DNA of 64,000 nucleotides from Eremomyces bilateralis CBS 781.70 (Eukaryota). Of this stretch, positions 4,312 through 64,000 are shown piece after piece. Where the stretch lies: assembly GCA_010015585.1 (NCBI GenBank), contig ML975166.1. One strand, 5' to 3'. A program made the position numbers and the translations under genes. The notes beneath the pieces were generated by a model. It saw only the letters and a program-made list of their open reading frames with translations. It searched no databases and was not told the origin of the DNA. Each line of letters starts with the position of its first letter. The stretch's first letter is position 1.

Positions 4312-4462
4312 CTCATGATGGCTATGTATATATTTTGCACGGATGTTCATGTCGCTGTACATATCGAAAGCTGGATTGCGGCACACAGTATTGGCCTGGT
4401 ATATGTATCAACTCCTACTTCGGCCTGCTATCGTTCGACTTCCCAAGTTTCCTGCTCGCAGC

Positions 4463-8934: not shown

Positions 8935-9400
8935 GTGCAGAGTCCTTTCCTTTCAGACGAGGTAATGGATTAATCGGGGGTGAGGTTTTAGGGGGCTTTT
9001 GACATGCATTCAACGGCCGGGGCTTTGATCCTCAGTATTATACGGAATTCCATAGATGTAGTAACGGTGTCTTGATTTTGGAATGACGGATCTGAGACAA
9101 CGTATAATAGATCAATTCCTTAAATGCCGACTGGTGCCATTAACTTCTGATGGCTGCACGTGTAAAATATAACAGTAACGGCAGCAAGGAACCACAGCCA
9201 ATCAGAAGCCGAGACGGTTGGAGAGACGTCGTCATTCCGCCACACGCAATCTTCCCCGTTCCCGCTTGACAGCTTGAGCTTCGAGTTCACTGGTAGCTAA
9301 TACTGTTCACCCTCACATCCTTATCACTTCACATGCGAAACTAAATACTTCTTCTTCCCGCGTAAATCGAATTTACCGTGAAGTTGCATCAACATCCACA

Positions 9401-10884
9401 ATGTCCGAGAAACCTACTGAGAAGCCGGTATGTCTCTCTCTGTTCCCTGATGCGACGGAATTTGTGGTCTGACTTCTAGTCCAGGCTCCAGGCTCCGGCC
9501 GAGAATCGCCACGAACAGCACGGGATCCCGATTTCGACGATGACCCGGAAGAGATTGTCGCAAGCGCTCCAGCATTCGCCCTCGCGCCCGCCGCCTCCGA
9601 ACCTAAACCGAAACCCAGGGTGAGCTTTGCCGACGAGGAGCAGCCACCCGTGAAGCCACCCCGACCCGTCAGCCCGCAGGCTCAGGCGGAGGCGACATTG
9701 GTAGAAGCCTTTCCGAGCGTCGATACGAAGGTCGTCCAAGCGGTGTTGCGCGCCAGTGGTGGGAAGATGGAGCCGGCATTCAACGCCTTGCTGAGTTCGT
9801 ATGCGCTGCTTCGTGTCCGGCCCCGATGCTGACCAGTATACAGGCATGTCCGATCCGAATTACCAGGATGAGCCAGCACCTCTACGACAGCCTCCGCGGC
9901 CCACACAGGCACGGACACAGTTGGAAGCAGACGAGTTGTATGCACGACAGTTGGCAGAACACTATCAGTCGCAAGGACATGAAGGATTCGGATCACGGGG
10001 GAGAGGCGACCCTCCCATGCCTAGGGGAAGGCAGGAATCGGGATTGAAACCCAACGAGATGTACGATGACAGGGATCACAGCTTCTTCGACGGTAAATGG
10101 CATCGGTTGCATGTGGCGGTGATGCAACTGACAGTTCTTAGATGATCTACCCGTCATCCGCGAAAACATTCGAAAGGGCTTCGTCGAGACGCAGTCATGG
10201 TTCAACAAGACCATCTCCGATTTAAAGAAGAAGATGGACGGCGAGGACGACGACGACCTGGACCGGCCCGGTGCAGCTTACCAGCGACAGAACTACGGCC
10301 CTTCGCAGTCGGACCAGATGCGCGGGATCCGGAGGAGCGCCGAGACTCGGGGAAGCGGTGACAGGCATCGCTACGACGCGGATCCGAGGGTATTGGACGA
10401 CGATTTCACGGCCCTTGAGCTTCGAGATGATGAGCGTATGTTCCCTCACTTTGTATTCCGTTTTTAGTTGTTAACCGTCGATACAGATCCGCCTCCCAAG
10501 CCTGCCCGCCCGCTTGCGAATCCCGACCTCTTCAAACCTACCCCCGCCGCTCCGCGTCCCGGTCCCGTCGACGAAATCGACGCCATCTACGGCCAACCGA
10601 CGCGAGATCCCTCGCCGGGGGTGGGCAAGACGAAGAAGTGGCAGCCTCTCACCTCGGTCGCGCCGAATCCGGAGGGGGATAACGATCCGTTCAGCCTAGG
10701 GGACAGCGACGAGGAGGAGGCTAAGACGAAGGATCTGAAGCAGGAGGATACTGAGAGGCTGAAGAAGTCGGCGTCAGCGTCCGTTTCAGAAGGAACGGGA
10801 GCCGAGTTGCCGAAGTTGGAGAAGGCGGAGACGTCGGGGACGAAAGATAAGGATGCGGAGGAGCTATTGAAGAACAAGACCTAG
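9401..10884 (+). CDS. CUE5: CUE-domain ubiquitin-binding protein (Cue5-like)
   Basis: LVEAFPSVDTKVVQAVLRASGGKMEPAFNALL CUE domain; QLEADELYARQL; DDLPVIRENIRKGF; four introns. Confidence 0.85.
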
Positions 10885-11225: not shown

Positions 11226-13168
11226 ATGATCCTCTCGTCTGTACTTGTTTTTGCAGCCATTGCTCATGGCAGGGAGATCGTGTTTCCTCCTCTGCTAGAC
11301 ATCACCCAGAATGACCAATTGTTCAAGAGCTTGGAAGGCGCAGGGCAAGATTCAGGCTTCGGTGTTGCGATCGCTGGTCTGCCAACCTATGCGAATTTGC
11401 CATTTATAAACTGTGCAGCCAAGGACGGCGACGATGTGTTCGACATTGGAATCCTTGGGGCAGGTTTTGATACTGTGAGGCCATCTCCCCTCCACTCCAT
11501 TTTCGTATCGCCGTCATTAGAAACATGAGACCAGATGTCATTATGGAAGATTACTGAAGTCTTGTCGCGCATCGCGTTTCTCTCTTCCATATTACCTTCA
11601 TTCCATGCTGCGTTCCGTTCATCTCCCACAGGCGGGAAACATAGTGCTAACTCAATCTCAGGGCGTAACTGCCCGGCCTGGCACTCGCTTCGGCCCCGAT
11701 GGCATACGGCAGGGCTCAAGGCGCATGAGCGATAGCATTTGGAGCATCTATACCGGTACCCGCCTCCCCTTTCGTCAAAGTGTTCAAGCAGGCATCGGGC
11801 CTGATCCGGATCATCTGGTTTTCCCCTGAGCGGGTGCCCGCGTGTTGGTTTTGTGTGACAGTTGCCGCCCATTGTTCTTGTGCATGACTAGGGGATGTTA
11901 TCTAAAGGTTAACTGCAGGCAAAAATACTTTCCGCGACTGGGCCCGGATCGTCGACTGCGGGAACGCGCCGTTGACGTATCTGGTGAGTCATACCCGGCG
12001 GAGCCCCATTGGAGAACAACACTGATGTATATGGTACGGAAAGGACAATACGGTAGCGTTGAAGCAATTGCAGCTTTCGCACAAGGCAAGTAGCCGATTC
12101 GCTTGGGGACGTGCTGATGGGGATAAGCGAGACTGATATGTGGATAGGCCATCTCAGCGAGAAGGACCAGTTCCAGCGAATATACTACCCCGAGGATATT
12201 GACTCTGGGTGGAGATCATACAACCACTCTCCCGGCGTTAAGATCGGCTTATCAGAAGTTTGGACAAGTCAGCGTAATACATTTCGATTCGCATCTCGGT
12301 AGGTCAATAGAATCGTTGCACCCTGCCAGGACAATATTGATTCTGACATTGGGAAGATACCTGGGATCCTAAGGTGCTAGGTGAGTAGACTCCTGGAAAT
12401 CCAAATCATGACTAGACTGATCAAAGGTTCTACATCTTGCAGGAGGCGGAATCTCGCATTATGCGTACGTGTGCAGAACTCTCGACTGGTGTAACCACCC
12501 TAACATGTCAAACAGCGGCGTCAACCACGGAACCTTCCTCCACATCGCACACGAAGAAGGCCTCATTGGCAACAGTTCGATCCACGTCGGCATCCGAGCG
12601 CCCGTCTTGCGTCCGAAAGGAGACGTCCGAAATGACATCCGATGCGGCTTCGACATGATCAAAGCGCGTGACCTCGACCGAATCGGCGTCCAAGGGGTGG
12701 TTGACAAAATTAAGGAAAGAGTCGGAGCGAATAAGGTCTACATTAGCGTGGATATTGATGTACTTGATCCCGCGTTTGCTCCAGGTGAGTTGTCTGGGGA
12801 GAATTGCCGAGCACTTAAAGAGTCGAAGGCTTGAAATGGGATTGATCTGTTGAGGAGTACTAGTAACTGACATGTTTCGCAAACAGGAACCGGGACAGCA
12901 GAGGCAGGCGGTTGGTCGACCAGGGAGCTGCTCACGATCCTCGATGCGCTCTCTGGCCTGGAGGTGGTTGGGGGAGACGTCGGTAAGCTTTCCTCCTGTC
13001 CGCTGCCTAGATTGCTTGAATTAACGTTGTCTTCCCCCAGTCGAGGTGGCCCCGATCTATGACAACGCTGGTGAAACCACAATCATTGCTGCAGCCGAAG
13101 TCGCGCACTCGTTGCTGCAGTTGATGGTGGACCAGCCAGTAAAGAGTCTACGTGCCACAAATGAGTAG
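11226..13168 (+). CDS. Ureohydrolase (agmatinase/guanidinobutyrase-like, arginase family) with signal peptide; 10 exons
   Basis: Spliced motifs [60 protein letters not shown]; 9 introns including a GC-AG intron at 12086-12147. Confidence 0.88.
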
Positions 13169-14184
13169 AATGGTGCTTCCCGCGGACACAAGGACGCTAC
13201 CACAATATATTGATGCCCAGGCATGAAAATTTTTCATAAGTATCTAAGTGCTGAAGGCCTCGCTCTGGAGAAGAGGTAGTATATATCAATATAAAGTGAA
13301 GTAGTCGGAATATCTAGACTCTAGATAGAAATATAGCGGTTGAGATGATATACTTGCATGCGTATCGCCCTCATTTGTGGAAGCAAGAGGTACGTCCTTG
13401 CAACGTATTCCACGTGTCTTGGCTTCAGTGCATTCTTCGTAAGCAAACGCGTTCAATTTGCGGTCGGGCAAAAGCTAACGGTGTCGCCACTGCTTTTGTT
13501 CGGACTGATACTGGACTTTTGACAAACCTATGGCCAATTTGGGCGGAAGGGATGGGTGTCATGATACGATTTTGGGATGAGTTTAATGAGAAGAACTGGG
13601 CCAATTGCGTACACCCCGTTCTGGTTAAGGACGATCTTGGAATCGACGCGAGCAGTATTGTTGATTTGGAGACACTGAAAGGACTGGTGTTGTAGATGGC
13701 GCAGATTTGTCACCTGATCCAAGTTCGGAGAGGGAGATATCCGGTAGAGTAGCTGTCTAGGTTCGGTAATGAGAATCAATGCCTTTACTTTCGCAGTTTG
13801 ATGACACTCGTAGTGTCTCGGCTGACTTCGGTATTTTTAATATGGGTTTCGTGAACCAAGTAGAAGGACGAAGCCTGGAACGGAGATCAATAGATCATGT
13901 CTCTGTTAGCTGAATGTGATATAAGACCAGTGGCGAAGGGGTTGTTGATGTGGGACGTTTGAATAGATTCTGTCTTCAATCTGCCTTCAGTCCGCCTTCG
14001 CAAATTCGTATGTTGGTCAGATATCACTATTATTAATATTTAACTCCGATATCTCCGCAAAAGTGGATGGGATCTGCAAACCAATCCAGGCCTATAAGTC
14101 TCGGTGCTCTAAGGGAATAAGGGATACATTTTTCAGTGAGTACTTCAACACTCAAGGGTCGCTCTCAGCACATACACGTCGAAA

Positions 14185-15084
14185 ATGGGTACTTTAGTCA
14201 TTGGCGCCGGTGAGCTGGGCATGGCAATATTACAAGCGATATCGCTGCACCCCCATCACGACAGCAAAAAGCTCGCTGTCCTTCTTCGGACGGAGGCGAT
14301 CACCTCTCATGACACCTCGAGGAAAGAGAATGTCCGAAAAATCAAGTCTATGGGAGTGGAAATCGAAGTCGGCGATGTTGTTAGCTACTCGCTCGAGGAG
14401 CTTGCCGAGATATTCAGTGGCTATGATACGATTATCTGCTGCTCTGGCATGGGGTTACCTTCCGGGACTCAAATCAAGCTGTGCGGAGCGGTCGTTCGCG
14501 CCCGAACGCCGAGATATATCCCGTGGCAATTTGGTCTCGATTACGACCGCATCGGATACGGCAGCTCGCAGGACTTGTTCGATGAGCAACTCCATGTCCG
14601 GGAGGCGCTTCGTGCTCAGACAACAACGACCTGGACCATCGTATCGGCGGGACTGTTCATGAGCTTTCTCTTTCTTCCGGAATTTGGCATCGTTGACCTC
14701 GAGAATGGCGTGGTCCATGCTCTTGGCTCTTGGGAGAACCGTGTTACCGTCACCGGCCCCAAAGATATTGCCACCATGACCGCAGAAGTGGTCTGTAATG
14801 CGGAAGACACCGCCGACCGAGTGGTATATATCGCTGGAGACACTATCTCATATGGTCAGTTGGCAGAGCTTTTAGAAGCTCGATTTCAAAAGGAATTTGT
14901 GAAGAAGCTATGGGACATTCCGACTTTACATCGCCAATTAGCCACAGATCCTGGCAATGGGATGATTAAGTATCGAAATGTATTCGCCGATGGTCGTGGA
15001 GTTGCTTGGGATAAAGCTGAAACACTGAATGTCAAGCGCAGCATTCCGCTTACGGACCTCAATTCATACCTTGACAAGCTTTGA
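14185..15084 (+). CDS. NmrA/isoflavone-reductase-like NAD(P)-binding protein (aromatic alcohol reductase-like), intronless
   Basis: LVIGAGELG Rossmann motif, PWQFGLDYD, DLFDEQL, YIAGDTISY, GRGVAWDK; 299-aa single exon. Confidence 0.8.
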   Translation: MGTLVIGAGELGMAILQAISLHPHHDSKKLAVLLRTEAITSHDTSRKENVRKIKSMGVEIEVGDVVSYSLEELAEIFSGYDTIICCSGMGLPSGTQIKLCGAVVRARTPRYIPWQFGLDYDRIGYGSSQDLFDEQLHVREALRAQTTTTWTIVSAGLFMSFLFLPEFGIVDLENGVVHALGSWENRVTVTGPKDIATMTAEVVCNAEDTADRVVYIAGDTISYGQLAELLEARFQKEFVKKLWDIPTLHRQLATDPGNGMIKYRNVFADGRGVAWDKAETLNVKRSIPLTDLNSYLDKL

Positions 15085-27360: not shown

Positions 27361-27432
27361 AATATCATGAGGCTATCTATAAAAAAATCTTAAATTACCC
27401 TACAGCCTCTTAGGGCATCAACATACGGGGAC

Positions 27433-29545
27433 ATATCGCCAATATCTTCGCCAGGTTCCTTTCTAAGCTTCTCCCGGCGAGAGGCTCGGGCCTTACGACT
27501 TAACTATCATGACCTAAACGATGGAACAGACGAGGAGAACTCGGAGTATAACGGTGATGCTCTAGAGTCGCTGGATCTTAGTATCACGGCGTCATCGGTA
27601 TCACAGGATAGTTTGATGTATTCTGCAGATTCCATTTCTAACAATTCTCTAGAACAGCCACTAGGGGGCATGTTGCCTATCAATCGTGGTGGCAGGAACA
27701 GGAAGAAGTATAAGAGCTGGGTCTGGGCCTTCTTTTCAATCGATAACAGATCAAAACTGGTTAGTTGTATAAAGCCAGGATGTCGCTGGTCATCGAACGA
27801 AGGCCTCTTACAGGGCTCTACGAGCAATCTTATCCGCCATTTATCGACAACTCACGGAATCACTCGCGCTCAACAACATACCGCGCTCGTTCTGCCAAAT
27901 TCCCTCGCTAGCTGGGTCTCTTCGACTTCGGCTTTAGATCTGGTAGCGGATTCCTTCGAAGAAGCTCTCCTTAAATGGGTAGTTGTTGATAAGATTGCAT
28001 TCTCTTCCGTAGAGAGTCCAGCCTTCCAAAATATGCTAAGAGCAGTAGCAACATCAAGAGATCCTACAAGCTCTGCGAGAAGCGTAAAGCGAAGTCTTGA
28101 AAGGCAGTTCCTAGAACCCCGAGAAGCCCTTATTACAGAGCTGGCCAGCACATGCAGCACTATCTCGCTATCTATAGACGCTTGGACGAGCACGAACAGC
28201 ATCTCAATAGTAGCGATCATCGGTTCATGGTTAACCCCTACCTTTGAGTTTAAAGAGAGAGTATTGGAGTTTACAGAGATTGAAGGTAAGTCTATTTACT
28301 AAATATCAGTTTATTTAATACTAAGTTCGTTGCAGGGACGCATAGCGGGGAGAATCTTGCAAAGATCCTATATGAGACTCTCTAAGAGCTTCAGATTAGC
28401 AGCAAGCTCCTAGCGGTAACAGCGGACAACGCTTCAAACAACGACGTGATGGTGAGCCAGTTGTATGGCCACTTACTTGCGGAATACGGCATCACCTCAC
28501 CCTCTACCGATCTAACTGATCCTTTATTCTGCGACAACCTCCCCTTTCGGTTTCGCGGCTCTCAGAGCTTCGTTCGCTGCCTCGCTTATATTCTGAATCT
28601 GATTGTCAAGGATATACTGGGGGCTCTCCGCAGTGGGCCTCGCCAAGCGGCTACAGAGTATGTCGACCGACTACGATTCGGACTTAGACTACCGGTAGAA
28701 CACTCAGCAATCGAGAAGATCCGGATCCTATCGTTGTGGATCCAGGGATCTCTACAACGTATTCAGAACTGGAAGCGCTTCTACTCGCTATATGAGCTCC
28801 CGAGTAACCTTATTCGATATGATGTTGCAACACGATGGAACTCGACATTCGAATGATCGACGATGCTATTCGCTCTTAAAAACAGCTGATAGAGTTTGTT
28901 AAAGTTACCCTAGAGATCCAATCCCTAGAAATAACCTCAAACGAATGGACCTGGCTTAGGGACTTGCAAAAAGTTCTAACGAGATTCGATAGCCTTACCT
29001 GTCAAGTGTCGAAGACCCAACCGTAGATCAGCTTCTCCCTTAGTATTTACTACGAGATATCTGACCTCTTACACGACGTAAAAGAAGCGAGGGATTCTTT
29101 TACTGACCTGCCGGATGATATTCGCCATACTATTGTTGAAGGACTCAAAAAATACGACAAGTACTATGCGTTTGCTGATTCAATAAACGCATACTACGCA
29201 GCAGCTCTCCTGGATCCTAGAGTCAAGAACAAGTGGCTCTCTTGCAATCTTACGAGTGACGATGTTCATACGGTTACCTCCCAGATCCGTGGCCATCTAG
29301 AATCAACTTATCGATCAATTGGAGCAGAAAAGGACGCTCAATTAACTCCAGAGCTTAACCCTTTTGCTAACAAGATGCTGCAAATTGTACAGCGGGACGC
29401 CGCTCCCTTATCGGATGTGGACCGATATTTCGACTCTAGAGTTGTACAAGTCGATACGGATCATGATAAACAATGGCTCTTTAAGTGGTTGGCACGACAT
29501 GCTGCAGAATATCCGGATAATCGAAAAGCCTATCCGTATCCGTGA
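27433..29545 (+). pseudogene. Degenerate hAT transposase (BED finger + DDE)
   Basis: KSWVWAFF...C..PGC...STSNLIRHL...H BED finger; SIDAWTS; VTADNASNN; RCLA(Y)ILNL; TRWNST; LLDPRVK; in-frame stops at 28383, 28877, 29024; frameshift ~28851; intron ~28287-28335. Confidence 0.92.
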
Positions 29546-52044: not shown

Positions 52045-54188
52045 ATGACCCAACTCGATACTCTGGACCTCGTGGTCCTCGTCGCTCTTTTCGTCGGTAC
52101 CGTCGCATACTTTACGAAAGGCACCTATTGGTCGAAACCACATGATCCATATGGCGGGTCGCTGGCGCATGCCAACGGCCTCAAGGCCGGGAAGTCGAGG
52201 AACTTCATCGAGAAGATGGACGAGTCTGGGAAGAACTGCATCGTGTTTTACGGGTCACAAACCGGCACCGCCGAAGATTACGCCTCTCGGTTAGCCAAAG
52301 AGGGCGCCGCTCGCTTCGGATTGAAGACAATGGTGGCAGATCTGGAGGACTATGACTTCGAGAACTTGGATCAGTACCCCGAGGACAAGATCGTCTTCTT
52401 CGTGCTCGCCACGTACGGGGAAGGCGAGCCGACAGATAACGCGGTGGAATTCTACGAGTTCGTGAGCAACGAGGATGTCACGTTCAGCAACGGCGCCGCC
52501 GCGGAAGAAAAGCCTTTGTCCAACCTCAATTTCGTGGCCTTCGGCCTGGGAAACAACACGTACGAGCACTACAATTCCATGGTCCGGAACCTTAACACGT
52601 TTTTCGAGCGATTGGGCGGGAATCGCATTGGAGAGGCCGGCGAAGGAGACGACGGCGCGGGAACGATGGAAGAAGATTTCTTGGCCTGGAAGGAACCCAT
52701 GTGGACGGCATTGGCCGCGCACATGAATCTTGAGGAGCGCGAAGCCGTATACGAGCCCGTCTTCGACGTCGTCGATATGCCGAATATGGACGCGGAGGAG
52801 GATACCGTCTACCTTGGCGAGCCGAACAAATACCACTTGGAAGGCGTCCAGAAGGGTCCGCATAACGCGCATAATCCATACATTGCGCCGATTGCGGAGT
52901 CCAAGGAACTCTTCTCTGCTGACGACCGGAACTGCTTGCACATGGAAATCGATGTCGCCGGCTCGGGCATCTCGTACACGACTGGTGACCACATCGCCAT
53001 CTGGCCGACGAACGCTGGGAAGGAGGTCGAGCGGCTTCTCCGGGTCCTGGGCCTGGAGCCGAAACGGCACAGCGTCATCAAAGTCTCCGGTTTGGATCCC
53101 ACCGCGAAGGTCCCTTTCCCCTCTCCTACGACCTACGACGCCGTCGTGCGATACCACATGGAGATCTGCGCCCCCGTCTCCCGTCAAATGGTGTCCACCC
53201 TCGCCGCTTTCTCTCCGACCGACGAAATCAAAGCCGAGATGACCAAAATGGGCGAAGACAAGGACTATTTCCATGCGAAAGTGGCTGATCTTAACGTCAA
53301 CCTCGCACAGCTCCTCGAGATCCTCTCAAACGGCGCTCCGTGGGATAAAGTCCCCTTCTCGCTCATGATCGAAGGCCTCCACAAGATCCAACCGCGATAC
53401 TACTCCATTTCTTCCTCCTCGGTGGTCCAGCCGGGGAAAATCGCCATCACCGCTATCGTCGAGTCCATCGAGAGGCCCGGCGCTCCCCATATCGTCAAGG
53501 GCGTCACGACCAACTACCTCCTGGCGCTCAAGCAAAAGCAACACGGCGACCCCAACCCGGATCCGCACGGATTGAAATACGCGCTGACCGGTCCCCGCAA
53601 CAAATACGACGGCGTCCACGTCCCCGTGCACGTCCGACATTCCAACTTCAAGCTCCCGTCCGATCCGAAGAAGCCCATCATCATGGTCGGGCCCGGGACG
53701 GGGGTCGCGCCGTTCCGAGCGTTCGTCCAAGAGCGCGCGGCGCAGGCGGAGAAGGGCGAGGAAGTTGGTCGGACAATCCTGTTCTACGGGTGCCGAAGAC
53801 GGCAGGAAGACTTCCTGTACGAGAAAGAATGGGAGGTATGTTGCTCGCTCGCTATCATAGCTGTTCCCAGGATTCACTGACTTCCGCGTAGACACACAAA
53901 GAAACCCTCGGCGACAAGTTCCACTGTCACGTCGCCTTCTCCCGCGAAGGCCCGAATAAAGTATACGTGCAGCACAAGGTCCAGGAATATGCCGACGAGA
54001 TCAACACGCTGCTCGAGCAGAAGGCGTACTTCTACGTCTGCGGCGACGCGGCGAGCATGGCCCGGGAAGTCAACGCGCTGCTCATCAAGATCATCGCCGA
54101 GAAGCGCGGCGTGTCCGAAGCGAAGGCCGAGGAGATTGTGAAGTCGATGCGGGCGAGTAATCAGTATCAAGAGGACGTGTGGTCATAG
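52045..54188 (+). CDS. cprA: NADPH-cytochrome P450 reductase
   Basis: N-terminal anchor MTQLDTLDLVVLVALF; FYGSQTGTAEDYA, ATYGEGEPTDNA, PRYYSISSS, MVGPGTGVAPFRAF, C-terminal YQEDVWS; 5'-UTR intron 51924-52035; intron ~53836-53891. Confidence 0.95.
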
Positions 54189-54782: not shown

Positions 54783-56852
54783 TCATGTAGCAGATCGTAC
54801 CGGGTGATGACTTCCTGGACCGTTCAGCCCAAGCTTATCGATCGTGACACCGAAGCCGTTGAGCAGCTCCAGTTCCAGAGGAGCCACGATCTCATTGTAC
54901 ACCGCTTCTCTGAAGTCATCATTCTCAAGATCCATCTCCTCGGTATCAAACTGTTGAAAGTAGTCCTGGCAATTTAGACAAGCGTCGATGGCTTGATGGA
55001 AACCTTCGTAGACGTCATCCTGTTGTTCGCCGAAGAGTCGCAGAGCCGTGAGTAAATCGGAATTGACATGTTCTTGCTTTTCCGCCGTGAGATCGTCATT
55101 CTCCCGCTTCGACTCAATCCCAGCTTGTTGCTCGATCTCAAGCAGCAATACTCCCAAGGCTAAAACACTCGGGTTGGGGTGCAAGCGGTACATCGCCTCG
55201 GCGGGATCTTCCCGGTCCTGAATGGGCTGAAAATCAGTGGTGACATACGGCCGGATGAGATCCACGTCGTCCTTGCTTTTGTAGAAAAACGAGATATGAT
55301 GTTTGTTCCAACTACTCCTTGTCCCGTGTCTCATCCATGGCGAGTCGCAAAAGTGCAGCAACGAATGGGCAAGAATCACAGCAAGGATCCGCTTCTCCTT
55401 CAGCTTCAGCTTCCGCTTGCCGTCAAGCAGTGCTGCCAGTGAGACGTCTGGCAGCGACCCTTCCACACATAGCCGTTTCTCGCTAGGGCGAGTGATGTGC
55501 CAGATCTGAGTGCCGTCATACAGCATCCGTGGACAACACTTTTGCTCGCCCGCGGCACGAATGATTTTGCAGAACTCGTCTGGATCCGAGACTTGCTCCT
55601 TAGTGAGAGGAGGGGCAGATGCTCTTCGGGGGTAGGCAAGAGGCCGCTGAGTTGTCCACGTATCAGGATCGGGATATGTTGTCCGCCGTGGACGCGTACC
55701 CGTGGGAGTGCGAGTCCCTGAGGTATCCGAGTCCATCGTACTTGCTCGACCCATGAATTCCTCGATGACGGACGGAGTAGTCGGCGATGCCGCAACGGAG
55801 TCTTCATCTTCTATAATGAAGCGGACATTAGATGTCTTCTTGGTCGATTCGTTCGCCAAGGCGACGACCATCTTGCTCTCCAGCCATGTTTGATATTGTG
55901 CGGTTGCCTGGGCGCGGATCGACATCAGCATGTCGAAATATACCTCCTGCGACGCTTTGGATGGAGTATTATCCTGGCATTTGAGTAAGCAAAATCGAGC
56001 CTCATGCCCGTGAGGGCATGAGCAGGGCCAGAGGCCACCCATCGTAGAGTACAGCGCATGCATCAACGGACGCAGTTCCATGTGCGGCGTGCTGGTACTC
56101 TCTGGTCGGGCCTGGTTCGCCTTGGTCTTCTCGTATGTCGCCGACGAACGCTGTAGAAGAGAGTCCAGCCTCTCGTTGCACTTCTCGATTCGATCGAGAT
56201 AGGCATTTCGCTTTTCTTCTCTAATGACAAACTTCAGACGGTCCAAGAAGCGGCTGTGCTCTGGGCTTTTGTCGGCTTTGAATTGCTCCCGCAGCGCCAG
56301 GAGTTTCGCGTACGACGTTCGGGGGGTTTGCTGGGACCCATATTATCAGCACGAGCTCCAAACCGATATCCCGGTCCATGGACCACCGAACAACAACAAC
56401 AACAACAAACAACGAGGACGATGGTCGAATCTTACAATTTCATTTAGACTGGTCTCGATGTCGAGGGTGTCGTCCTTCACCAATTTTCCTAAGTTACGTA
56501 AAATCTCGTCCAAAGCCTCGCGAAATGCGTCGAACCCGAGCCCCAAACGCGACCGCAAGGCTCTCACCACCGCCTCTTCTTGCCAATACGATGGGTCTTG
56601 CTCATCGCTCAGGAGCCTCGTCCGATGCGCTTCTGGAAGAACGTAGAGGTCATGGATGAGACTTTGGATAGTGATATTGAGCATTGAAACCTCATAGTGT
56701 AGGTTGCTGAAGAACGTCGCAAGCTTGATGCTTTTTCTCCTGTGTAGGAAGACTGTCCGCGTGGGATCTAACAGTTTGGAATGATATTCCGAGGCCACTA
56801 AAATAACGGGCACAACCGCCAACACAAGACCAGCAAGTTCGACTCCAGACAT
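54783..56852 (-). CDS. ~654-aa protein: HeLo-like N-terminal helical domain + DUF7580-like degenerate kinase-like C-terminal domain
   Basis: N-terminus MSGVELAGLVLAVVPVIL; C-terminal KRILAVILAHSLLHFCDSPW...HISFF...PYV...HPNPSVLALGVLLLEI...YEGFHQAIDACL...FREAVYNEIVAPLE; intron 56331-56435. Confidence 0.65.
56389..56412. repeat. (AAC)n microsatellite within the intron of the DUF7580-like gene
   Basis: aacaacaacaacaacaacaaacaa. Confidence 0.8.
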
Positions 56853-57267
56853 GATGAAGACATGGATTTTACCTGCTTGTCTCGATGAATTTGTGAGGTT
56901 TGAACCAAAGGTTGGCGAACATACGGAACGGCTCGCTGATGGAGGCTATCTTATACAAGCACATGTTCTTCCTGACTTCTGCGTCTACAAGTTCAAAATT
57001 CAGCCTCGCAGATCCATATCTCCTTTGGGTTTCCGGTGTGATAAATGAGGCTGCATTAATTCCGGTTGCCTTCTGTACTGCCCCATTGATGTCCAACAAG
57101 CTGCTCACGCAATGCAGCCAGCTCCATAAAGCCCTAATCATATCATGATTGTCCAGGGATGAAGGCTGGGCAGCGTTTGTATATACATCCGACATGTCGC
57201 AAAGCTGACGATGTTCGAACATCCAACAGCCTCGCGTTGATCTATCTTGCAACACTAACGAGGCACG

Positions 57268-60200
57268 ATGGAACAGCATCTCCAAATTTCGACGGTGGCA
57301 GAGAACTGCAGAAATGCTTTCGGAGCGTGTATTGAAGCAGCACTGGCCGATGCGACTGATGAGGAGAGGACACAGCTCGGGTTGGCTGTGGAAGAACAAA
57401 GTCAGCGCTTCAATATTTGGACGGGAAATATTGGGGTATTTGCCGATCCAAAAGCCTCCCTTGATTTCCGTCTTCGCGGCAGTGAGCCTGTTCATCGACT
57501 GGTGATTTCGCAGCTTAGGATTCTCCTTACATTTCTTCAAGGACTGAATAGTGCATTGACACCAAGTAAGTATCAGCACCTACCTTATCTAATCAGATGC
57601 GACATTCCGTTCCGAGTCTGACATGAATCTAGACAACCCTGATCACGATATTGGGAAGGATCGGACTGATACCGACGAGTTCAAGGAATCCGACTTCGGG
57701 ACTGACACGGAATCTGCTTCGACTGACTCGTCTTTGGTTCGCGCTTGTTCCCCATCTCCAGCCATTCCCCACGCTGCTCAGCAGTTGATCACTGCCCGTG
57801 AAGCAATTGGAAGGCTCCACAGACTTGCGCGAGCGATCCGAAGGCCCGGTCTCCTATCTCGGAACTCTAAAGCAGACAAATTTATTATTCTTGATTCGTT
57901 CGGAAACGATGAGATCCAGGCCTTCGAGGACTTTGTTTGGCAGTGGGTCGGCCTTCGATTTAAAGATACTAGTCCAGCGCTCCGCCGCCGCTTGACCCAA
58001 GTCAACGCGATCCGGCGAAGGCGTTTCCTGTATCTGGTCGAGCATCAGAAGCATCTCCGCGGGAAGAAATTTGACTTCCTACGGCTCGCACTCTCTGGTT
58101 CTCCTCCCGGGAGTCAGTATGCGGCAAGCGCGAGAATAAGTACGACGGCCAGATCCAAGCCTCCAGAGCCAAATATCGATCTCCAAGTGCCAGCGATCCT
58201 CCAACGGGATGCCATCGATACAGCCCCCGGACTGGGCGATGCGACGACCTTCGTGGGATCCAATGTTCAAACGGAAGCTTCCTCTATGTTCACTCCATCA
58301 TCGCCATCGTCCGTAGGGAGCGTCTTTGATAAACTTTGCATCCCTCCTCCGCCTAAGATTCCCCAAGGCAGGCCCGAGTTTGAGTGTCCCTATTGCTTTC
58401 AGATGCTGCCAGCAGATCACGGGCTCAGTCGAAAGAAATGGAGGTTAGTGAGGGCGTTAGATAACGGATGCACGTCCCCGTGGAGTGGTAAACTTGATCT
58501 AACATGGCACCAGGAAACATCTTATGAGAGATTTGGAGCCATACGTATGCTTTGCAGAAAGCTGCTCGGACCCCAATCATCCCTTTCGTGATCGCCATGA
58601 GTGGGTCGACCACATGCGAAAGCACAATATTCAATGGCGGTGCCGACAGCCTGGCCATGAGCCAATGACATTTCACGCGGAGCAAGACTTCAATTCGCAT
58701 TTGGAGATCGAACATCAACATCTGTTGAAGAACCCAACTTTGTTTCAATACGCCAAACGAAACAGCGTCGTCACCACGAACAGTGTGTTCTCACAATGTC
58801 CTTTATGTCCGTTCAGAGCAGCTCCCGACCCGCCAGTTGGCCGAGTGATGGACCGCATGCGCAGGATCCCCTCCGAGACGAAAACGGGATTGTCCGCGTC
58901 AACTCTGAACATGCAGAGGCATATCGCGTCCCATTTTCAGTCGATCGCGATCCTGTCACTTCCTTGGCGTGACGATGTGGACGAGCAGATCCACAGCGAC
59001 CGGCCTGGAACCCGAGAGTCCGACAGCGACTTTGGGAGCGGTTCTGCACCTAATCTATCCGATACAGAAGACCTTGGTTCTGCGTTGGTTGGTCTTGAAG
59101 ACATGGAAGAAGAACTCCAGTTCGATGATCCATGGACCCCCTTGGATGTTACTAATCCTGAAGAGTGGACGTTCATTCCGAGGACCTCCTACAATGGCCA
59201 CGATGCAGACCCGGTTCTGCTTAACTTCACGAAGAGGTTCCTAATCGAATCGCAGTTCGGCGATGGGACTGCAGTGGATCCAATCCTCCCTTGCAAATAC
59301 ATACCCTTCAATAATCGAAACACTGACTTCTTTGGGCGAGCTGACGTTCTGAACACTCTGGTAGAAGCGCTTCGCCCCCCAGGAGTGGCTCCGCAAAAGT
59401 TGGAGATCATGGATCCTACCGCTCCCAATCGGAGCTTTTCTACCAACAGCGGAGGCAGTGGAAGCAACCCCCCAGGGAGTGTCCAGCAGTCGGACTCACT
59501 CTTGACTCCCTCATCAGCTCTCGTTCCGGACGAAGTTCTGTCATCATCTTCTACGTCTTCATCGGAAGCAGACTTGGAAGCGGACTTGAAAGCGGACTTG
59601 AGGAATGGTGAGAAGCTTCGCACTTTTGCCTTATTTGGACCCGGCGGAATAGGGAAGTCACAAGTGGCTGGCGAATTCGTCTGCCGATACTTCGAAAAAT
59701 ATGACGCTATTTTCTGGGTGCATGCCGATGAGCAAAACAAACTGACGGAGGAATACTCTCGGATCGCCATCCAGCTTGGCCTCGTGCCAGAAGTGGTAGC
59801 TGATGGTAGGGATCGAGCCTTGACCCGTGATCTTCTCAAAGCATGGCTGGCAAATCCGGTGAAGAGCTTTACAGACCCCTCCAAAGGAAAGGCACGATGG
59901 TTGTTGGTTCTGGACCATGTGATTGACCCCGAATTGCTTCGGGATTTCTGGCCAACGGACGCGACGAACGGATCAATTCTCCTGACTAGCCGAAGAGTGC
60001 TGCCTTGGGATCAGACGTATTATCCCGGACTCACCCTCAAGCCCTTCACTGCCGAAGAAGGAGCCGATTTTATTACCCATCTCATGGAAGGACCCATCTC
60101 CAGCCAAGAACGGCAGTGCGCCAAACTCATTGCGAACAGCGTCAATGGGATTCCATTGGCATTAAAACACCTGACCAAGATTGTTCAGCAAGAAGAATGG

Positions 60201-62070
60201 AGTTTCGAGGACTTGATCAAGTTTGATAGCGACCCTCAAGAACGGAAAAAGGTCCAGATACACGGCGAGTTGGGGCGATTCCTGGCCGACCATTCATTTT
60301 TGAAATGGGCATTCGAGAAAGTGAAGCCTAGTCGAGCGCTGCTGGATGTGCTTTCATTTTTTGATCCTGATGGAATTCCAGAGCGATTGATAGTCACCGG
60401 GGCAGGAAAGGTGGAGCTCGCGAACTTCCCGGGGTCGGGCAGCGATTGCCAAAATGCAATTTCGGCGTTAAGGAAGTATTCCCTCGTGCAGCGCAACAAG
60501 GTTGACCGATCGAAGCTGTTGATGCACCGGATCTTTCAAGAGGCGGTCCGGAGACAAATGAGCCAGGAATACTATCGGCAGGTATTCAATGCCAGCGTAA
60601 AGATCATCTCCTTAGCCTGGTATGTATTTCCACGAGTCATCACGGTACATACTAACCCAGGGACAGGCCCTTTCGTGCATTTTCGTGGGGACACAGCATT
60701 CGATGGTGGCCGGAATGCGAAATCCTGCTGCCTCACATCATTCGAATGCGATCATGGGCAACTTATATTGCTACAATGGAAGAGGATATCAGCGGAGCTT
60801 ATGAGTACGCACGCCTGAGCTGCAAAGCAGGATGGTATGTCCCTGAGAGAGACTTCGCCATGGACTTTTCACTGAGCGATCATTGCAGGTACTGCCACGA
60901 GCGCGGTCAGCCCCTTGCCGAGATGTTTTGTAACCTTGCGCAAACCATCTGCGAGTCCCTGAAGTCATTCTACCCCCTTTCGGAGGGCCAACAGAAAAAC
61001 GCGAGCCCAAAAGAATGTGACATTGATACCATCCTCGCTGAAATTCACCACAATCGGGGCGTCATCGCCGTGGAGATGAACCGACCCGAAGAGGCACTCA
61101 ACCACTTGACAAAGTTCAATGACATGATGAAGAAGGAGCTTGATGGTCGTTCCCAGGGTAAAGACATGCGATTTGCCATTTCCTGGAATGTAAGTGGTGC
61201 GCGTCATATGGATGTATTCATGCTGAATGCTTGATAGCAACTCGGAGTGGCGTACATGGTGAACGACAATATTGAAAAGGGTGAAGAATGCTTCATCAAG
61301 TCGATAAAAACCATGAAACAGCTGGAAAACTACCGGCCATATCTCATCTCACTCCCGGTAGGCAAACCCTAGAAGACGTGGTGATGTTGATTGACACTAA
61401 TATATATGTCTAGCTAGTCAACCTTGCACTGGTGTATTGGCTTACCAACCGACGAGATGATGCCCTTATCGCTTTGAACGAGGGCGTGGAGGCTCGATCA
61501 CGGTTTTTTGGTCCGAACGACCGTGAATCATTCATGTAAGACCACTATGGATCTTTGCTGCACCACTTACCTAATAAGCCTTAGCACGGGGAGATTCCTG
61601 CACGCCATCGGCAACGTCAAAGAATCTCAAGGGTTCCTCGACCAAAGCCTAGACTATCATCAGCAAGCACTTGATCACTATCTCCTTACCCTTGGAAGAA
61701 ACCACCATCGAACAGCCGACGTTCGAGTCCGAATCGCAAAGCACTGTCTTCGGCAAATCAATGCAGCTGAAGCCCTGTATGTGGGACCATTACTTATCGT
61801 CGCATCTCTTGACTGACATTGTCTTTTAGCGTCGGGCTACAAAAAGCTCTAGCTGCATATGGCACCGACACAATTTATAGTCCCGAACGAGCTCGAGCCA
61901 AATTCATGGTCAGCCAAGCATTGAGGATACAAGGACAGTTGGAGGAAGCAGACTTGGCCGCACAGGAGAGCTACAGTTTGTATTTGACGTGTCGGCCGAA
62001 AGAGGCGAGGTCATTTGGACAACTGACCGAAGAAGACTTTGAGAAAGCGATTGTGTTCTGGTCGAGGTAA
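57268..62070 (+). CDS. Fungal NLR (STAND): N-terminal helical domain + C2H2 zinc fingers, NB-ARC, winged helix, TPR repeats; 9 exons
   Basis: RFNIWTGNIGVFA..SLDFRLR; FECPYC..W/RKHLMRDLEPYVC..C..F..R.EWVDHM; RNTDFFGR; Walker A GPGGIGKS; WLLVLDHV; ILLTSR; GIPLAL; MHRIFQ; TPR-like helices (LAEIHHNRG, FLHAIGNV); 8 canonical introns. Confidence 0.85.
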
Positions 62071-62889: not shown

Positions 62890-64000
62890 ATGCCCGGTCC
62901 TACCACCGTGACCGCTGAACTCGACTTCCTCAAGAAAGATATCAAGCATTCGACGGAGAAGCCCTATAAGCTGCAATACGACCCTGGTCCCGATCTTCCC
63001 CGCTGGAACTGCGAGAACGTCTCTCAATCGGACATACCGGTCCATGACATTCGGGGACACGAGAATGAGTATACACTGGAGAAGAATGGGTTTGTGGTTC
63101 TGAAACTCGAGAGCCGGTTGGTACCCGAGGACTTCTATGATGAGAAGAAGGTGAAAGAGGTGTACTATGAGGAGGTTAAGGAGGTGCTGAAGAGAGAACG
63201 GGGAGCGAAGAGGGTGGAGATATTGGAGCATGGAGTATACCCGCCCAGACCCTTTTCCGTTCCCATGAGTCTATATTGCGCTACAAGTCTTAGCCCTTGC
63301 AACTGTTCTATCTATTGTCAAAGTCATGGGATGTCCTTTCGGATTATTGTTGACTAATTATGGTAGATTCGAAAGAGGCATGAGGAGTTTCCGATTTCAA
63401 CCGGCGGAGATTACCAATATCTTCAACCAACTTCAGTGATTCATATTGGCATGTTGGCTATCTAGCATACAGAGTGTCACGGTTTGCTAACTTAGATAGA
63501 CTTCACTCCTGAAGCAGCCCTAGAATCCAGTGCGAATATCCTCAAGGTCCCTTCGTCCGAGTACGAACGCGTTCAATGCATGAAGTATGCCATAAAGCGT
63601 TACTGATGGAGCTCGCGCTTACCGCTTCCTTAGCATCTGGAAACCTCTCCGCGGCCCACTGACGGACTGGCCACTCACCGTCTGCGATGTGCAAACGCTC
63701 GACGTCGAGCGAGACTGCGTGGCTACCGATGTGGTGACACGGGATGGATTCACGGAGAACTATCAGATCTACTACAATCCCGAACATCGATGGTACTATC
63801 TCAACAAGCAGATGCCCGATGAATTGATTGCGTTCCGCCAGACCGATACGGATGAGCGATATACTACGGGTAAGGACATTGAATTGATGGACTGAGAAGA
63901 ATCAGAGAGGGCTAACTGCGCTGTTCAGGGGTGCCGCATGCCGGGTTTAGAAACCCAATGGCTGTGAAGGGGGAAACTCCCCGTGAAAGCATCGAGATGC
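62890..64000 (+). CDS. AsaB/CmcJ-like (GA4-desaturase-like) hydroxylase/desaturase, truncated by window end
   Basis: PVHDIRG..YTLEKNGF, YYEEV, spliced IHI/DFT, IWKPLRGPLTDWPLTVCD, YNPEHRWYYL.KQ.PDE, VPHAGF, RESIEM. Confidence 0.75.

Follow-up and report, generated by a model that had tools for sequence, protein, structure and literature searches.

To our knowledge, only two routes have been described by which a fungal NLR reaches a separately encoded effector: amyloid templating, used by NWD2/HET-S and its relatives, and gasdermin proteolysis. In the NWD2/HET-S system of Podospora anserina, as described in PMC9815663 and PMC10197012, the NLR gene adjoins a gene whose product carries an N-terminal membrane-targeting helical domain, and the link is presumed to be made by the NLR N-terminus, which shares an amyloid motif of ~21 residues with the C-terminus of the effector. 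In fungal gasdermin clusters, an NLR-like protein activates the adjacent pore-former product through its N-terminal domain, by S8 or CHAT proteolysis (PMC9815663, PMC12881547). MLKL, in animals and plants, joins a HeLo/4HB-like N-terminus to a kinase-like regulatory domain without catalytic activity, is activated by RIPK3 phosphorylation and is not known to be linked to an NLR gene. The plant NB-ARC receptor ZAR1 works with a separate pseudokinase-type protein, RKS1; the channel is formed by the NLR's own coiled-coil, and the ZAR1 and RKS1 genes are not known to be adjacent. Plant head-to-head sensor/helper pairs, in which both members are NLRs, are divergent and have a short shared promoter (PMC12258605), and a 2025 review describes some fungal HELL domains in kinase or pseudokinase proteins of MLKL-like build (PMC12881547).

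Here, we analysed a stretch of 64,000 nucleotides from contig ML975166.1 of Eremomyces bilateralis CBS 781.70 (the window), in which a gene for a DUF7580 protein (gene A) and a gene for a zinc-finger-NB-ARC-TPR NLR (gene B) are publicly annotated under consecutive accessions (KAF1810424.1, KAF1810425.1). Gene models, Pfam matches and RNA joints agree that the two genes lie head-to-head with starts 415 bp apart, as an earlier sequence-only reading of the window had stated (Table 1). A single RNA contig (run X3) contains nine GT..AG skips exactly matching all nine introns of both genes, and DNA run X1 contains zero intron skips at the pair, so both genes are transcribed and spliced. The joint at 56330/56436 represents the 105-nt skip in gene A, read as CT..AC on the plus strand. 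Under the RNA-supported model, the gene A product has 654 aa, compared with 674 aa in the public annotation (P0007), which includes an extra 3' intron; the RNA contig has no splice joint near the gene A 3' end, and residues 140-650 of P0007 are 100% identical to gene A. Similarly, gene B encodes 1452 aa under the RNA-supported model and 1464 aa in the public annotation (P0157), which matches gene B at 100% identity. The cytochrome P450 reductase (CPR) gene previously named as the neighbour of the pair was confirmed by its domain content, and the description of the surrounding block as accessory-looking is weakly borne out within the window, by a GC content of 0.49-0.53 around the pair vs 0.54-0.58 across 32-54 kb of the window.

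Table 1. Features of the gene pair and its surroundings, in positions of the window.
Feature	Position	Strand	Details
Cytochrome P450 reductase-type neighbour gene	52045-53880		Flavodoxin_1, FAD_binding_1, NAD_binding_1
Gene A, DUF7580 protein	56852→54783	minus	ATG 56852, stop 54783-54785
Gene A CDS exons	56852-56436 + 56330-54786	minus	ORF, splice sites, RNA joint
Gene A sole intron	56331-56435, 105 nt	minus	GTAAGA...CAG, CTGAT branch
Hydrophobic N-terminal helix, gene A codons 1-22 (MSGVELAGLVLAVVPVILVASE)	56787..56852	minus	Opens a ~205-aa helical, weakly HeLo-like region
DUF7580 domain (PF24476)	54864..56105	minus	Best Pfam stretch 54864-55598; N-terminal part placed by alignment to relatives
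Shared intergenic region	56853..57267, 415 bp		Between the two ATGs
Gene B, zinc-finger-NB-ARC-TPR NLR	57268→62070	plus	ATG 57268, stop 62068-62070
Gene B eight introns	57566-57632, 58444-58513, 60620-60666, 60835-60888, 61190-61237, 61358-61413, 61536-61584, 61777-61829	plus	Eight GT..AG RNA joints
N-terminal module, ~670 aa	57268..59378	plus	Helical region, then C2H2-type fingers
Zinc-finger region, P0157 residues 361-522	58379..58934	plus	Four Cys/His clusters
NB-ARC	59586-60197	plus	Walker A GPGGIGKS, Walker B LLVLD; Pfam
DUF7779, winged-helix-like part	60306-60569	plus	Pfam
TPR repeats, P0157 residues 1190-1395	61037..61860	plus	TPR_12, TPR_1, TPR_2 (Pfam)
CmcJ/NvfI/EfuI-family oxidoreductase gene, possible third member	62890..64000	plus	3' of the NLR, reaching or nearing the window end

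Gene B has the architecture of a fungal NLR. Its central P-loop NTPase is matched by Pfam NB-ARC (E 1.3e-8 for gene B, 4e-8 for P0157 residues 740-943), together with DUF7779 (4.6e-22) and TPR_12, and the C-terminal repeats are of the kinesin-light-chain type, with no near-identical tandem units in the TPR region. The NOD profile of the gene B family matches plant CNLs and AfsR (AfsR E 2.7e-10) about equally well, and ZAR1 (RPP13-like protein 4 entry) is among the CNLs matched by the NB-ARC profile; no recognisable death domain was found in gene B itself by Pfam or profile search. Within the N-terminal module, the helical part carries the motifs RF..W....G and RL.RL..AIR.P, and residues C363, C366, H384, H415, H419, C425, H444, H449, C477, C480, H518 and H522 are invariant in the module alignment. 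The first finger, which has an atypical spacing, is split by an intron at module codon 382 that is kept in every locus with both flanking frames visible, as judged in the other loci from a frame break at profile position 381-383. A further ~350 conserved module residues fall outside the fingers. In a precomputed domain list, PF26082 is assigned to P0157 and 7 further matches; the Atlas gives this family the name zf-C2H2_AcuF and contains look-alike clusters. The gene B homologue RDW60544.1 (P0160) is a listed member of NLR cluster XP_024735629 (S1 Table, PMC9815663), a C2H2-ZF class of fungal NLRs that is the same protein family as gene B. According to that table, the cluster includes both NB-ARC/TPR and NACHT/ANK forms, from four classes; its label 'NOA36/C2H2-ZF' appears in the supplementary table only, with no partner gene given, and 'zinc' and 'C2H2' are absent from the main text of PMC9815663.

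Gene A is a member of the DUF7580 family, matching at 153.9-158.7 bits against a Pfam gathering cut-off of 27 (E 3.5e-46 for its large exon, 1e-44 for P0007), with a Ser/Thr/Pro-rich insert inside the domain. Pfam found no NTPase domain in gene A; the analogy with plant NLR pairs drawn by the sequence-only reading, to which the divergent arrangement and short shared promoter do correspond, fails because this partner is not an NLR. The first helix of gene A reaches 2.3 in its best 19-residue Kyte-Doolittle window, and a window of at least 1.6 within the first 40 aa is found in 21/30 DUF7580 family members. Pfam HeLo matches, all below the Pfam cut-off and co-linear with the HeLo profile, occur in 3/63 DUF7580 relatives; additionally, HeLo is among the language-model neighbours, and Atlas clusters contain both HeLo and DUF7580. 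The sub-threshold Pfam matches, the language-model neighbours and the hydrophobic helix weakly suggest that the N-terminal ~200 aa of gene A are HeLo-like.

The DUF7580 domain, in turn, may be a degenerate kinase fold, on the basis of co-annotation in Atlas clusters, where DUF7580 and PK_Tyr_Ser-Thr sit on different members (16-22%). Sequence and profile tests of this assignment were negative: Pkinase (Pfam) matched 0/63 DUF7580 relatives, a profile search of solved structures with the DUF7580 protein returned no kinase, HeLo or MLKL entry, and hhalign against a kinase-NLR gave a probability of 0.3%, while the TM-score of the one kinase among the Atlas structural neighbours is just 0.26-0.31. 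In the alignment of DUF7580 proteins (A1), H248, C393, E537 and C590 are invariant, with no invariant Lys or Asp. Both identities on which a likeness to MLKL would depend, the HeLo/4HB-like N-terminus and the catalytically dead kinase-like regulatory domain, are leads here. DUF7580 is also fused to Peptidase_S8 in 5/63 relatives and to PNP_UDP_1 in 7/63, domains described in PMC4986451 as classical effector domains of fungal NLRs. Together with the hydrophobic helix and the HeLo-type leads, these fusions hint at an effector-like role for gene A.

To examine the linkage in other genomes, we collected 61 metagenome loci via the DUF7580 alignment, forming 37 clusters at ≥95% nucleotide identity, of which 19 extended at least ~700 bp upstream of the estimated DUF7580 start and the remaining 18, too short on that side, were dropped, the ~700-bp cut having been chosen after the data were seen. 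An opposite-strand homologue of the P0157 N-terminal module lies directly upstream of the DUF7580 gene in 16/19 clusters; two of the three partnerless clusters are broken by AT-rich blocks, and cluster L010/L014 has no partner gene. At loci with the DUF7580 N-terminus aligned, 264-825 bp separate the first aligned codons. There were no same-strand module matches, and none in 167 kb of other flanking sequence. Since the loci were gathered with patterns drawn from the DUF7580 subfamily of the query itself, with counts running from DUF7580 genes outward, the result is silent on the other ~1,290 DUF7580 clusters. Similarly, the two proteins carry consecutive accessions in Lophiotrema nucula (KAF2117448.1 / KAF2117449.1, both on contigs of identical length), Rhynchosporium commune (CZT00337/38), R. 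agropyri (CZT10391/92), R. secalis (CZT50000/49999) and Fusarium oxysporum f. sp. conglutinans (EXL67265/66), where the NLR accessions of the three Rhynchosporium species and F. oxysporum were taken from S1 Table of PMC9815663; the Eremomyces pair, being the window itself, served as a control. For a DUF7580 protein of Rhinocladiella, the same table lists no NLR at accession ±1.

The trees of 14 pairs have 5/11 splits in common, compared with 0.24 on average and at most 4 in 10,000 label permutations, and the Mantel r of 0.80 for the two gene trees was reached by 0/10,000 permutations. Tree congruence alone may come from common descent. The recurrent divergent adjacency and co-phylogeny that had been proposed as a check on the sequence-only reading are thus both present, and the pairing, recurring in metagenome loci and named genomes, is beyond local chance. 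Any two co-inherited genes would be expected to be adjacent with congruent trees, yet it is highly improbable that common descent alone, with no functional coupling, keeps the two side by side: adjacency, orientation and spacing are kept across three classes (Dothideomycetes, Leotiomycetes and Sordariomycetes), several distinct pairs are found among contigs of the same assemblies, and the linkage survives exchange of the partner's whole C-terminal half while flanking genes differ between clusters, a CmcJ-type gene being the sole common one. Together, the two genes form a single conserved module of Pezizomycotina, transcribed divergently. We found no description of an NLR-DUF7580 pairing in the literature, and the continued adjacency across distant fungi suggests a previously undescribed signalling pair.

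What stays constant next to the DUF7580 gene is the helical/zinc-finger N-module in particular, whatever domains come after it; behind the module we observed NB-ARC/DUF7779/TPR in 6 clusters, NPHP3_N+GPIID_WHD+ANK in 2, ANK in 1 and SH3 in 1. As in NWD2/HET-S-type pairs, the NLR gene adjoins a gene with a putative membrane-targeting helical N-terminus, but motif sharing between the two products is missing: hhalign of the gene B module family (A3) against the DUF7580 family (A1) gave a probability of 0.06% with no common motif, and homologues of gene B carry the label 'noasm' in S1 Table of PMC9815663, in agreement with the earlier observation that the NLR N-terminus lacks a short amyloid motif. 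Here, the NLR N-terminus is instead a ~670-aa folded zinc-finger module, and the C-terminal part of the candidate effector is the ~400-aa DUF7580 domain. The constancy of the N-module fits the earlier suggestion that coupling runs through this module and not through an amyloid motif. Unlike fungal gasdermin clusters, the pair contains no protease domain, and unlike ZAR1, gene B has no coiled-coil channel domain, the helical N-terminus being borne by its partner.

From these comparisons, we favour, with a probability of about 0.5, a reading in which a sensor of the NLR type passes its signal, via a dedicated zinc-finger adaptor, to an MLKL-like executioner encoded by the adjacent gene. The repeat domain of gene B would sense a ligand, the NOD would then oligomerise, and the clustered N-modules would bind the DUF7580 domain of the gene A product; this binding would free the membrane-targeting N-terminal region of gene A, resulting in regulated cell death. 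Such logic would be that of NWD2/HET-S minus the amyloid motif, with an MLKL-like effector that functions without a RIPK3-type kinase. The co-regulated sensor/executioner pair of the sequence-only reading is therefore supported in part, through conserved linkage and congruent trees, while physical contact, signalling direction, membrane attack and cell death are what we infer.

The same linkage and co-divergence would serve equally for a guard or adaptor arrangement comparable to RKS1-ZAR1, in which the N-module would hold the DUF7580 protein as an upstream bait or adaptor, and the output would be other than membrane attack by gene A. DUF7580, which resembles a decoy or pseudo-enzyme in having no invariant catalytic-type Lys or Asp, is joined to varied output domains (S8, PNP_UDP) and so behaves like a regulatory or receiver module. 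However, the hydrophobic N-terminal helix and HeLo-type leads point to gene A itself as the effector, and no death domain is recognisable in gene B itself, making this arrangement improbable.

Gene B could alternatively be a ligand-switched STAND transcription regulator resembling bacterial AfsR/MalT, with fingers that bind the shared promoter and control the DUF7580 gene, as its four C2H2-type Cys/His clusters and the AfsR match of its NOD profile would allow. Divergent placement of regulator and target is common in fungal clusters. Also, the 6-mer AGGCTG/CAGCCT has four sites in the 415-bp intergenic region, sits for the most part 86-230 bp ahead of the DUF7580 start across the pairs, and is found in 13/14 pair intergenic regions (maximum 11 in 200 shuffles) at a density of 4.45 per kb vs 0.63 per kb elsewhere; however, it was chosen post hoc, the regions include related ones (L038/L041), and upstream of CmcJ genes the 6-mer shows no enrichment (1.04 per kb). 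The conserved residues outside the fingers and the atypical first finger argue against a DNA-binding regulator, as does the joining of the module to NACHT-like-ANK and SH3, parts typical of protein-protein signalling, and we consider this alternative unlikely.

The CmcJ/NvfI/EfuI-type gene downstream of the NLR belongs to the NF041278 family, two exon pieces covering profile positions 8-102 and 147-230 with E 7e-16 and 1e-22 (58.5 and 80.7 bits; whole-protein cut-off 80). A CmcJ-type gene accompanies the pair in 9/37 locus clusters and, on either side of the pair, in 5/6 clusters with an NB-ARC-TPR partner. This recurrence would suit a small metabolic or redox cluster, in which the oxidoreductase would produce or alter a compound, or hydroxylate a protein, that the pair regulates or senses, and cell death would play no part. 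The CmcJ-type gene is, however, missing from locus L001 and, even with 10-kb flanks, from the NACHT-like-ANK and SH3 forms, meaning that the pair does not need the oxidoreductase, and no other biosynthetic gene is common to the clusters; such a metabolic role is very unlikely.

Returning to the sensor-adaptor-executioner reading, a broader version of it is tentative and rather doubtful. In this version, a widespread, undescribed form of trans-signalling would use the ~670-aa adaptor on NB-ARC-TPR, NACHT-ANK or SH3 inputs to activate a separate MLKL-like executioner, composed of a HeLo-like bundle and a DUF7580 pseudokinase-like switch, independently of amyloid templating, proteolysis or phosphorylation, and in the NB-ARC-TPR lineage the CmcJ-type dioxygenase would set or erase the signal. 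With or without this broader version, the proposed module would constitute a third route from a fungal NLR to a separate effector, and provide the first upstream activator for fungal HeLo-plus-kinase-like proteins. The module is compact, consisting of two or three genes and a 415-bp shared promoter, and occurs in at least three Pezizomycotina classes; its different sensor parts behind one adaptor make the proposal directly testable via co-expression and domain swaps. DUF7580 and zf-C2H2_AcuF, Pfam families without a function, thereby gain a concrete, linked hypothesis.

The window, whose source lineage is placed in the Dothideomycetes (Eremomycetales) by 100%-identical database proteins, carries the divergent gene pair described in the sequence-only reading, with start codons 415 bp apart, and the pair is confirmed by open reading frames, Pfam domains and a spliced RNA contig. 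Gene A, on the minus strand, matches Pfam DUF7580 (E 1e-44 to 3.5e-46), and gene B, on the plus strand, matches NB-ARC, DUF7779 and TPR, with PF26082 (zf-C2H2_AcuF) assigned from a precomputed domain list. The gene preceding gene A is of the cytochrome P450 reductase type according to Pfam, in agreement with the neighbour that had been named earlier. A single 8,974-nt contig from sequencing run X3 spans the stretch with nine GT..AG skips, all located exactly at predicted introns, and the DNA run X1 shows zero intron skips on the same stretch. The label of X3 as RNA is a guess only, none of the runs listed as carrying the sequence being recorded as RNA, and we treat the run as RNA-derived on the strength of its nine intron-exact joints; because such joints arise only from processed transcripts, both genes are transcribed and spliced, with the contig being uninformative on RNA level, transcript ends and strand. 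Runs X4 and X5, filed under the same species label, contain next to none of the words, which is no evidence of absence. The RNA-supported model of gene A encodes 654 aa and lacks a 3' intron; its public counterpart P0007 (674 aa) is annotated with one additional intron at the 3' end and with a C-terminus that differs (window 54783–54800). In gene B, the first intron measures 67 nt, giving a protein of 1452 aa; the public protein P0157 (1464 aa) retains the 12 residues lost through that intron. A second Eremomyces DUF7580 protein, P0008 (KAF1815310.1), is 46% identical and lies on another contig. Elsewhere in the window, the stretch of lowest GC holds what is probably a decayed hAT transposon, as judged from its broken frames and their zf-BED and hAT-like matches (see the table).

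Coordinates of features in the window and in metagenome loci (L0xx), the latter turned so that the DUF7580 match reads on the plus strand
Sequence	Feature	Coordinates	Strand	Remark
Window	Gene A coding sequence	start 56852, stop 54783–54785	minus	single 105-nt intron, 56331–56435
Window	Gene B	57268–62070	plus	eight introns: 57566–57632, 58444–58513, 60620–60666, 60835–60888, 61190–61237, 61358–61413, 61536–61584, 61777–61829
Window	Shared intergenic region	56853–57267		
Window	CmcJ/NvfI/EfuI-family oxidoreductase gene (NF041278)	62890 to at least 63892 (entry 62890–64000)	plus	just 3' of the NLR
L018	CmcJ-type gene	13187–14284		
L020	CmcJ-type gene	3882–4740		
L029	CmcJ-type gene	7966–9170		
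L041	CmcJ-type gene	12801–13570		
L018	~115-aa frame	12433–12786	plus	
L029	~115-aa frame	7363–7716	plus	
L041	~115-aa frame	12185–12520	plus	
L053	AT-rich block	7000–8500		GC 0.21–0.40
L052	AT-rich block	1–8500		GC 0.24–0.28, at least 8.5 kb
L047	Low-GC stretch	1–9000		GC 0.32–0.37, 9 kb
L057/L059	Divergent segment	~5500–10000		3–10% divergence
Window	Probable decayed hAT transposon	27394–29542	plus	three broken frames; zf-BED (E 6.8e-5), hAT-like RNase-H fold (E 4.6e-4); GC 0.46

We scanned metagenome contigs with A2, an alignment of 11 close DUF7580 sequences, using the patterns [VIL]L[AS]LGILLLE and [AP]V[IV]LA[HN][SA][LIA]L[HN]; the 61 loci returned, which group into 37 clusters at a nucleotide identity of 95% or above, sample the query's DUF7580 subfamily only. 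Partners were detected by tblastn with P0157 and by a local HMM built from residues 1–700 of that protein. A cluster was counted as informative when its sequence extended about 700 bp or further beyond the estimated DUF7580 start in the upstream direction; this cut, chosen after seeing the data, retained 19 clusters and removed 18 whose sequence stops too soon. The check for recurrent divergent adjacency proposed in the sequence-only reading showed that 16 of the 19 informative clusters have, immediately upstream and on the opposite strand, a homologue of the N-terminal zinc-finger/helical module of gene B (the N-module). In loci with an aligned DUF7580 N-terminus, 264–825 bp separate the codons at which the alignments of the two genes begin. 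Same-strand N-module matches were absent from all 61 loci, and 167 kb of the other flank, in 19 representative loci, contained none. Among the three exceptions, an AT-rich block splits the two genes in L053 and a larger one occupies the entire upstream flank in the related L052, and in L047 a truncated DUF7580 match lies next to a long low-GC stretch. In L010/L014, a CmcJ-type oxidoreductase gene, not a zinc-finger gene, stands upstream of the DUF7580 gene. These two loci show a single ~3.9-kb unit (CmcJ-type gene, then DUF7580 gene) in different rotations, the result of a tandem array or else of an assembly artefact. Different locus clusters have members on contigs of one and the same assembly, and a single organism or community therefore probably contains several diverged pairs. 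General synteny fails to explain the linkage, because just two other reading frames recur in at least three clusters, namely the CmcJ-type gene and a small frame of no recognised family.

Linkage was also seen in named genomes. The window pair, used as a control, has the consecutive GenBank accessions KAF1810424.1 and KAF1810425.1, and in Lophiotrema nucula (Pleosporales) the best non-self homologues of both proteins are likewise consecutive (KAF2117448.1 and KAF2117449.1), each on a contig 1,316,291 bp long. The S1 Table of Wojciechowski et al. 2022 (PMC9815663) lists at least 38 NLRs in the N-terminal cluster XP_024735629, annotated 'NOA36/C2H2-ZF' and without an amyloid motif, and P0160, a homologue found here, is a member of this cluster. 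In the rows of that table used here, all four genomes with both a listed NLR and a known DUF7580 accession carry consecutive numbers: Rhynchosporium commune (DUF7580 CZT00337.1, NLR CZT00338.1), Rhynchosporium agropyri (CZT10391.1, CZT10392.1), Rhynchosporium secalis (CZT50000.1, CZT49999.1) and Fusarium oxysporum f. sp. conglutinans (EXL67265/66). Backed by the control pair, we infer from consecutive accessions that the genes are adjacent, accession numbers giving no orientation; the pair therefore extends over Dothideomycetes, Leotiomycetes and Sordariomycetes. The accessions immediately before and after Rhinocladiella KIX10282 and two Ascobolus DUF7580 proteins are absent among the S1 Table rows listed, which contain NLRs only. 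Searches for homologous proteins with P0007 and with A2 gave seven matches each. A further DUF7580 protein, P0047 (KAB8360776.1), is filed under the tree assembly Carpinus fangiana; the family otherwise looks fungal, and the source may be a fungal contig within that assembly. On three independent lines, namely the metagenome loci, the named genomes and what is conserved, the pairing is beyond chance.

A Pfam scan of the frames behind the N-module showed that only this module is constant among the partners. It is followed by NB-ARC and/or DUF7779 with TPRs in six clusters (L001, L018, L020, L028, L031, L041), by NPHP3_N (NACHT-like), GPIID_WHD and ankyrin repeats in two (L002, L021), by ankyrin repeats in one contig-limited case (L035), by SH3 in one cluster (L057/L059) and by no recognisable domain in L042 and L048; in four clusters the frames are cut by contig ends. 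An intron splitting codon 382, inside the first finger, occupies the same profile position wherever both flanking frames are seen. Co-phylogeny, the other comparison proposed earlier, was assessed with quick IQ-TREE trees (LG+G4) built from query-anchored alignments of 521 and 464 columns for 14 pairs (the window, Lophiotrema and 12 loci), with L048 omitted as just 204 of its DUF7580 positions were covered. The two gene trees have 5 of 11 splits in common (label permutations: mean 0.24, maximum 4 in 10,000), and patristic distances correlate at r = 0.80, which no permutation out of 10,000 attained. The three genes with an ankyrin-type partner form one group in the DUF7580 tree. These results show that both genes were inherited and duplicated together, which is by itself no demonstration of co-adaptation, and mere co-inheritance of the two genes is a very improbable account of the data. 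L057 and L059 are 99–100% identical in their flanks (0–1% difference); they differ by 3–10% in a segment that takes in the zinc-finger-SH3 gene, the sequence between the two genes and the 5' portion of the DUF7580 gene, the one instance seen of a local rise in divergence at the pair. Within-cluster comparison of L002 with L005 and L007 revealed no excess divergence of the ankyrin region.

Because a constant N-module is combined with interchangeable sensors and a constant, divergently transcribed, effector-like neighbour, we favour a sensor-adaptor-executioner relay, with a probability of roughly 0.5. Linkage, co-divergence, modularity and expression are what the data show; in the inferred biochemical steps of such a relay, the repeats of gene B would bind a ligand and its NOD would oligomerise, whereupon the clustered N-modules would engage the DUF7580 domain of the gene A product, and the N-terminal helical region of the latter would be freed for membrane attack.

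The DUF7580 family comprises 1,292 representative clusters at E ≤ 0.001 in a 50%-identity library and is essentially ascomycete. Its consensus N-terminus in A1, an alignment of 30 family members, is MSGxExAGLVLxVxPL, and in 21 of the 30 the first 40 residues contain a 19-residue window with a Kyte-Doolittle mean of at least 1.6; the other members mostly look truncated at the N-terminus. Pfam HeLo (PF14479) matches 3 of 63 relatives of at least 400 aa, below the family cut-off (E 0.0013–0.0081) and in register (residues 8–56 with profile positions 1–48, residues 112–190 with positions 108–181). In the ESM Atlas, P0007 neighbours clusters that mix HeLo, DUF7580 and, on 16–22% of members, PK_Tyr_Ser-Thr, and its structural neighbours include one kinase cluster at TM 0.26–0.31. 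None of the 63 relatives has a Pkinase match; a profile search of solved structures with A1 returned no kinase, HeLo or MLKL entry and only coiled-coil noise (syntaxin, GldL, E 0.3–0.5); and hhalign gave no significant match between A1 and the kinase-NLR P0169 (probability 0.3%), with an LGxLLLE segment opposite the kinase WSFG segment as the sole aligned stretch. Given these negative results, we keep 'HeLo-like' and 'kinase-like' as leads, not findings. A1 has no invariant Lys or Asp; H248, C393, E537 and C590 are invariant and C242 is near-invariant. The conserved Cys and His residues of the domain (P0007 242–254, 393 and 590–593), comprising C242, C244, H248, C393, C590 and a near-invariant C593, suggest a putative metal site or disulfides.

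In 12 of the 63 relatives, DUF7580 is followed by Peptidase_S8 (P0064, P0075, P0150, P0122, P0143) or PNP_UDP_1 (P0068, P0081, P0092, P0094, P0095, P0096, P0108), five and seven proteins respectively, and DUF7580 therefore combines with several effector-type domains, both being listed in the part of PMC4986451 consulted among the N-terminal effector domains of fungal NLRs. These fusions speak for a possible regulatory role of DUF7580. A guard or adaptor role of the DUF7580 protein, rather than the executioner role it would have in the relay, is unlikely.

The N-module of gene B has a helical part with the motifs RF..W....G.FA...SLDYRLR, RL.RL..AIR.P and RL...N..RRR.FL. and four Cys/His clusters (FECPYC...W..H, DLEPY.C...H...H, W.C...H....H and CPLC...H...H), and the best 60 of 94 matches among solved-structure sequences include no counterpart. 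Stand-alone proteins of 447–769 aa labelled zf-C2H2_AcuF are present in Ascomycota. The NOD matches plant CNLs (Sr35, MLA13, NRC, Roq1, ZAR1) and the bacterial regulator AfsR, and the repeats match kinesin-light-chain TPRs; no near-identical tandem repeat was found in the TPR region of gene B. The earlier remark that no obvious short amyloid motif is seen at the NLR N-terminus held up, cluster XP_024735629 being recorded without one and hhalign of the NLR-side alignment A3 against A1 detecting no motif common to the two proteins (probability 0.06%). A relay of the NWD2/HET-S amyloid type is excluded as far as sequence can tell, because no such common motif was found. The relay favoured here resembles known fungal NLR/effector clusters in its constant N-terminal module, swappable sensors and constant effector-like neighbour; unlike in those clusters, the link would be a large folded zinc-finger/helical module, not an amyloid motif or a protease.

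The CmcJ-type gene adjoins the pair, on either side, in 9 of the 37 locus clusters and in the window. It is convergent and 3' of the DUF7580 gene in L017/18, L026, L028/29/44, L033, L034/45 and L041, lies past the 3' end of the NLR in L019/20 and L031, the same as in the window, and is upstream in L010/14. It accompanies five of the six clusters with an NB-ARC-TPR partner, L001 being without it, and none was found beside ankyrin or SH3 forms with 10-kb flanks. That the locus is a small redox cluster is improbable. A small frame of ~115 aa, with no family match and common to three clusters, lies between the DUF7580 and CmcJ-type genes.

A possible cis-element is the 6-mer AGGCTG/CAGCCT. Of the 14 shared intergenic regions (the window and 13 loci), 13 contain it, and 200 shuffles gave at most 11; the 7-mer AGGCTGA is found in 10 of 14 (shuffle maximum 7). 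The motif was picked after the fact, and the regions of L038 and L041 are clearly related. The 6-mer sites lie mostly 86–230 bp upstream of the DUF7580 start, at a density of 4.45 per kb compared with 0.63 per kb in all other sequence of the same loci and the window, a seven-fold difference, and are not enriched upstream of CmcJ genes (1.04 per kb). The main rival to the relay is that gene B encodes a transcription regulator of the STAND type, which would act on the promoter shared by the two genes. The zinc fingers of the N-module, the similarity of the NOD to AfsR and the intergenic motif would all fit such a regulator; however, the SH3 and NACHT-ankyrin partner forms and the 350 non-finger residues of the N-module fit less well, and we consider it unlikely.

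The zinc-finger N-terminal class of NLRs is catalogued in the supplementary table of PMC9815663, and the terms 'zinc' and 'C2H2' do not occur in the main text of that paper or in those of PMC4986451 and PMC13449251. One sentence in a 2025 review (PMC12881547) mentions fungal HELL domains in kinase or pseudokinase proteins. In the openly accessible literature searched, the pairing of an NLR with DUF7580 was not found, and DUF7580 had no mention. PF26082, PF24476 and AcuF-like turned up only in a pangenome paper, PMC13412767, whose consulted part places zf-C2H2_AcuF among the most copy-number-variable families of Neurospora crassa, together with HET and ankyrin; this variability fits an accessory, immune-like family. 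The arrangement of an NLR with an adjacent effector gene is thus known in kind, and there is a realistic chance that this pair represents a new signalling mode.
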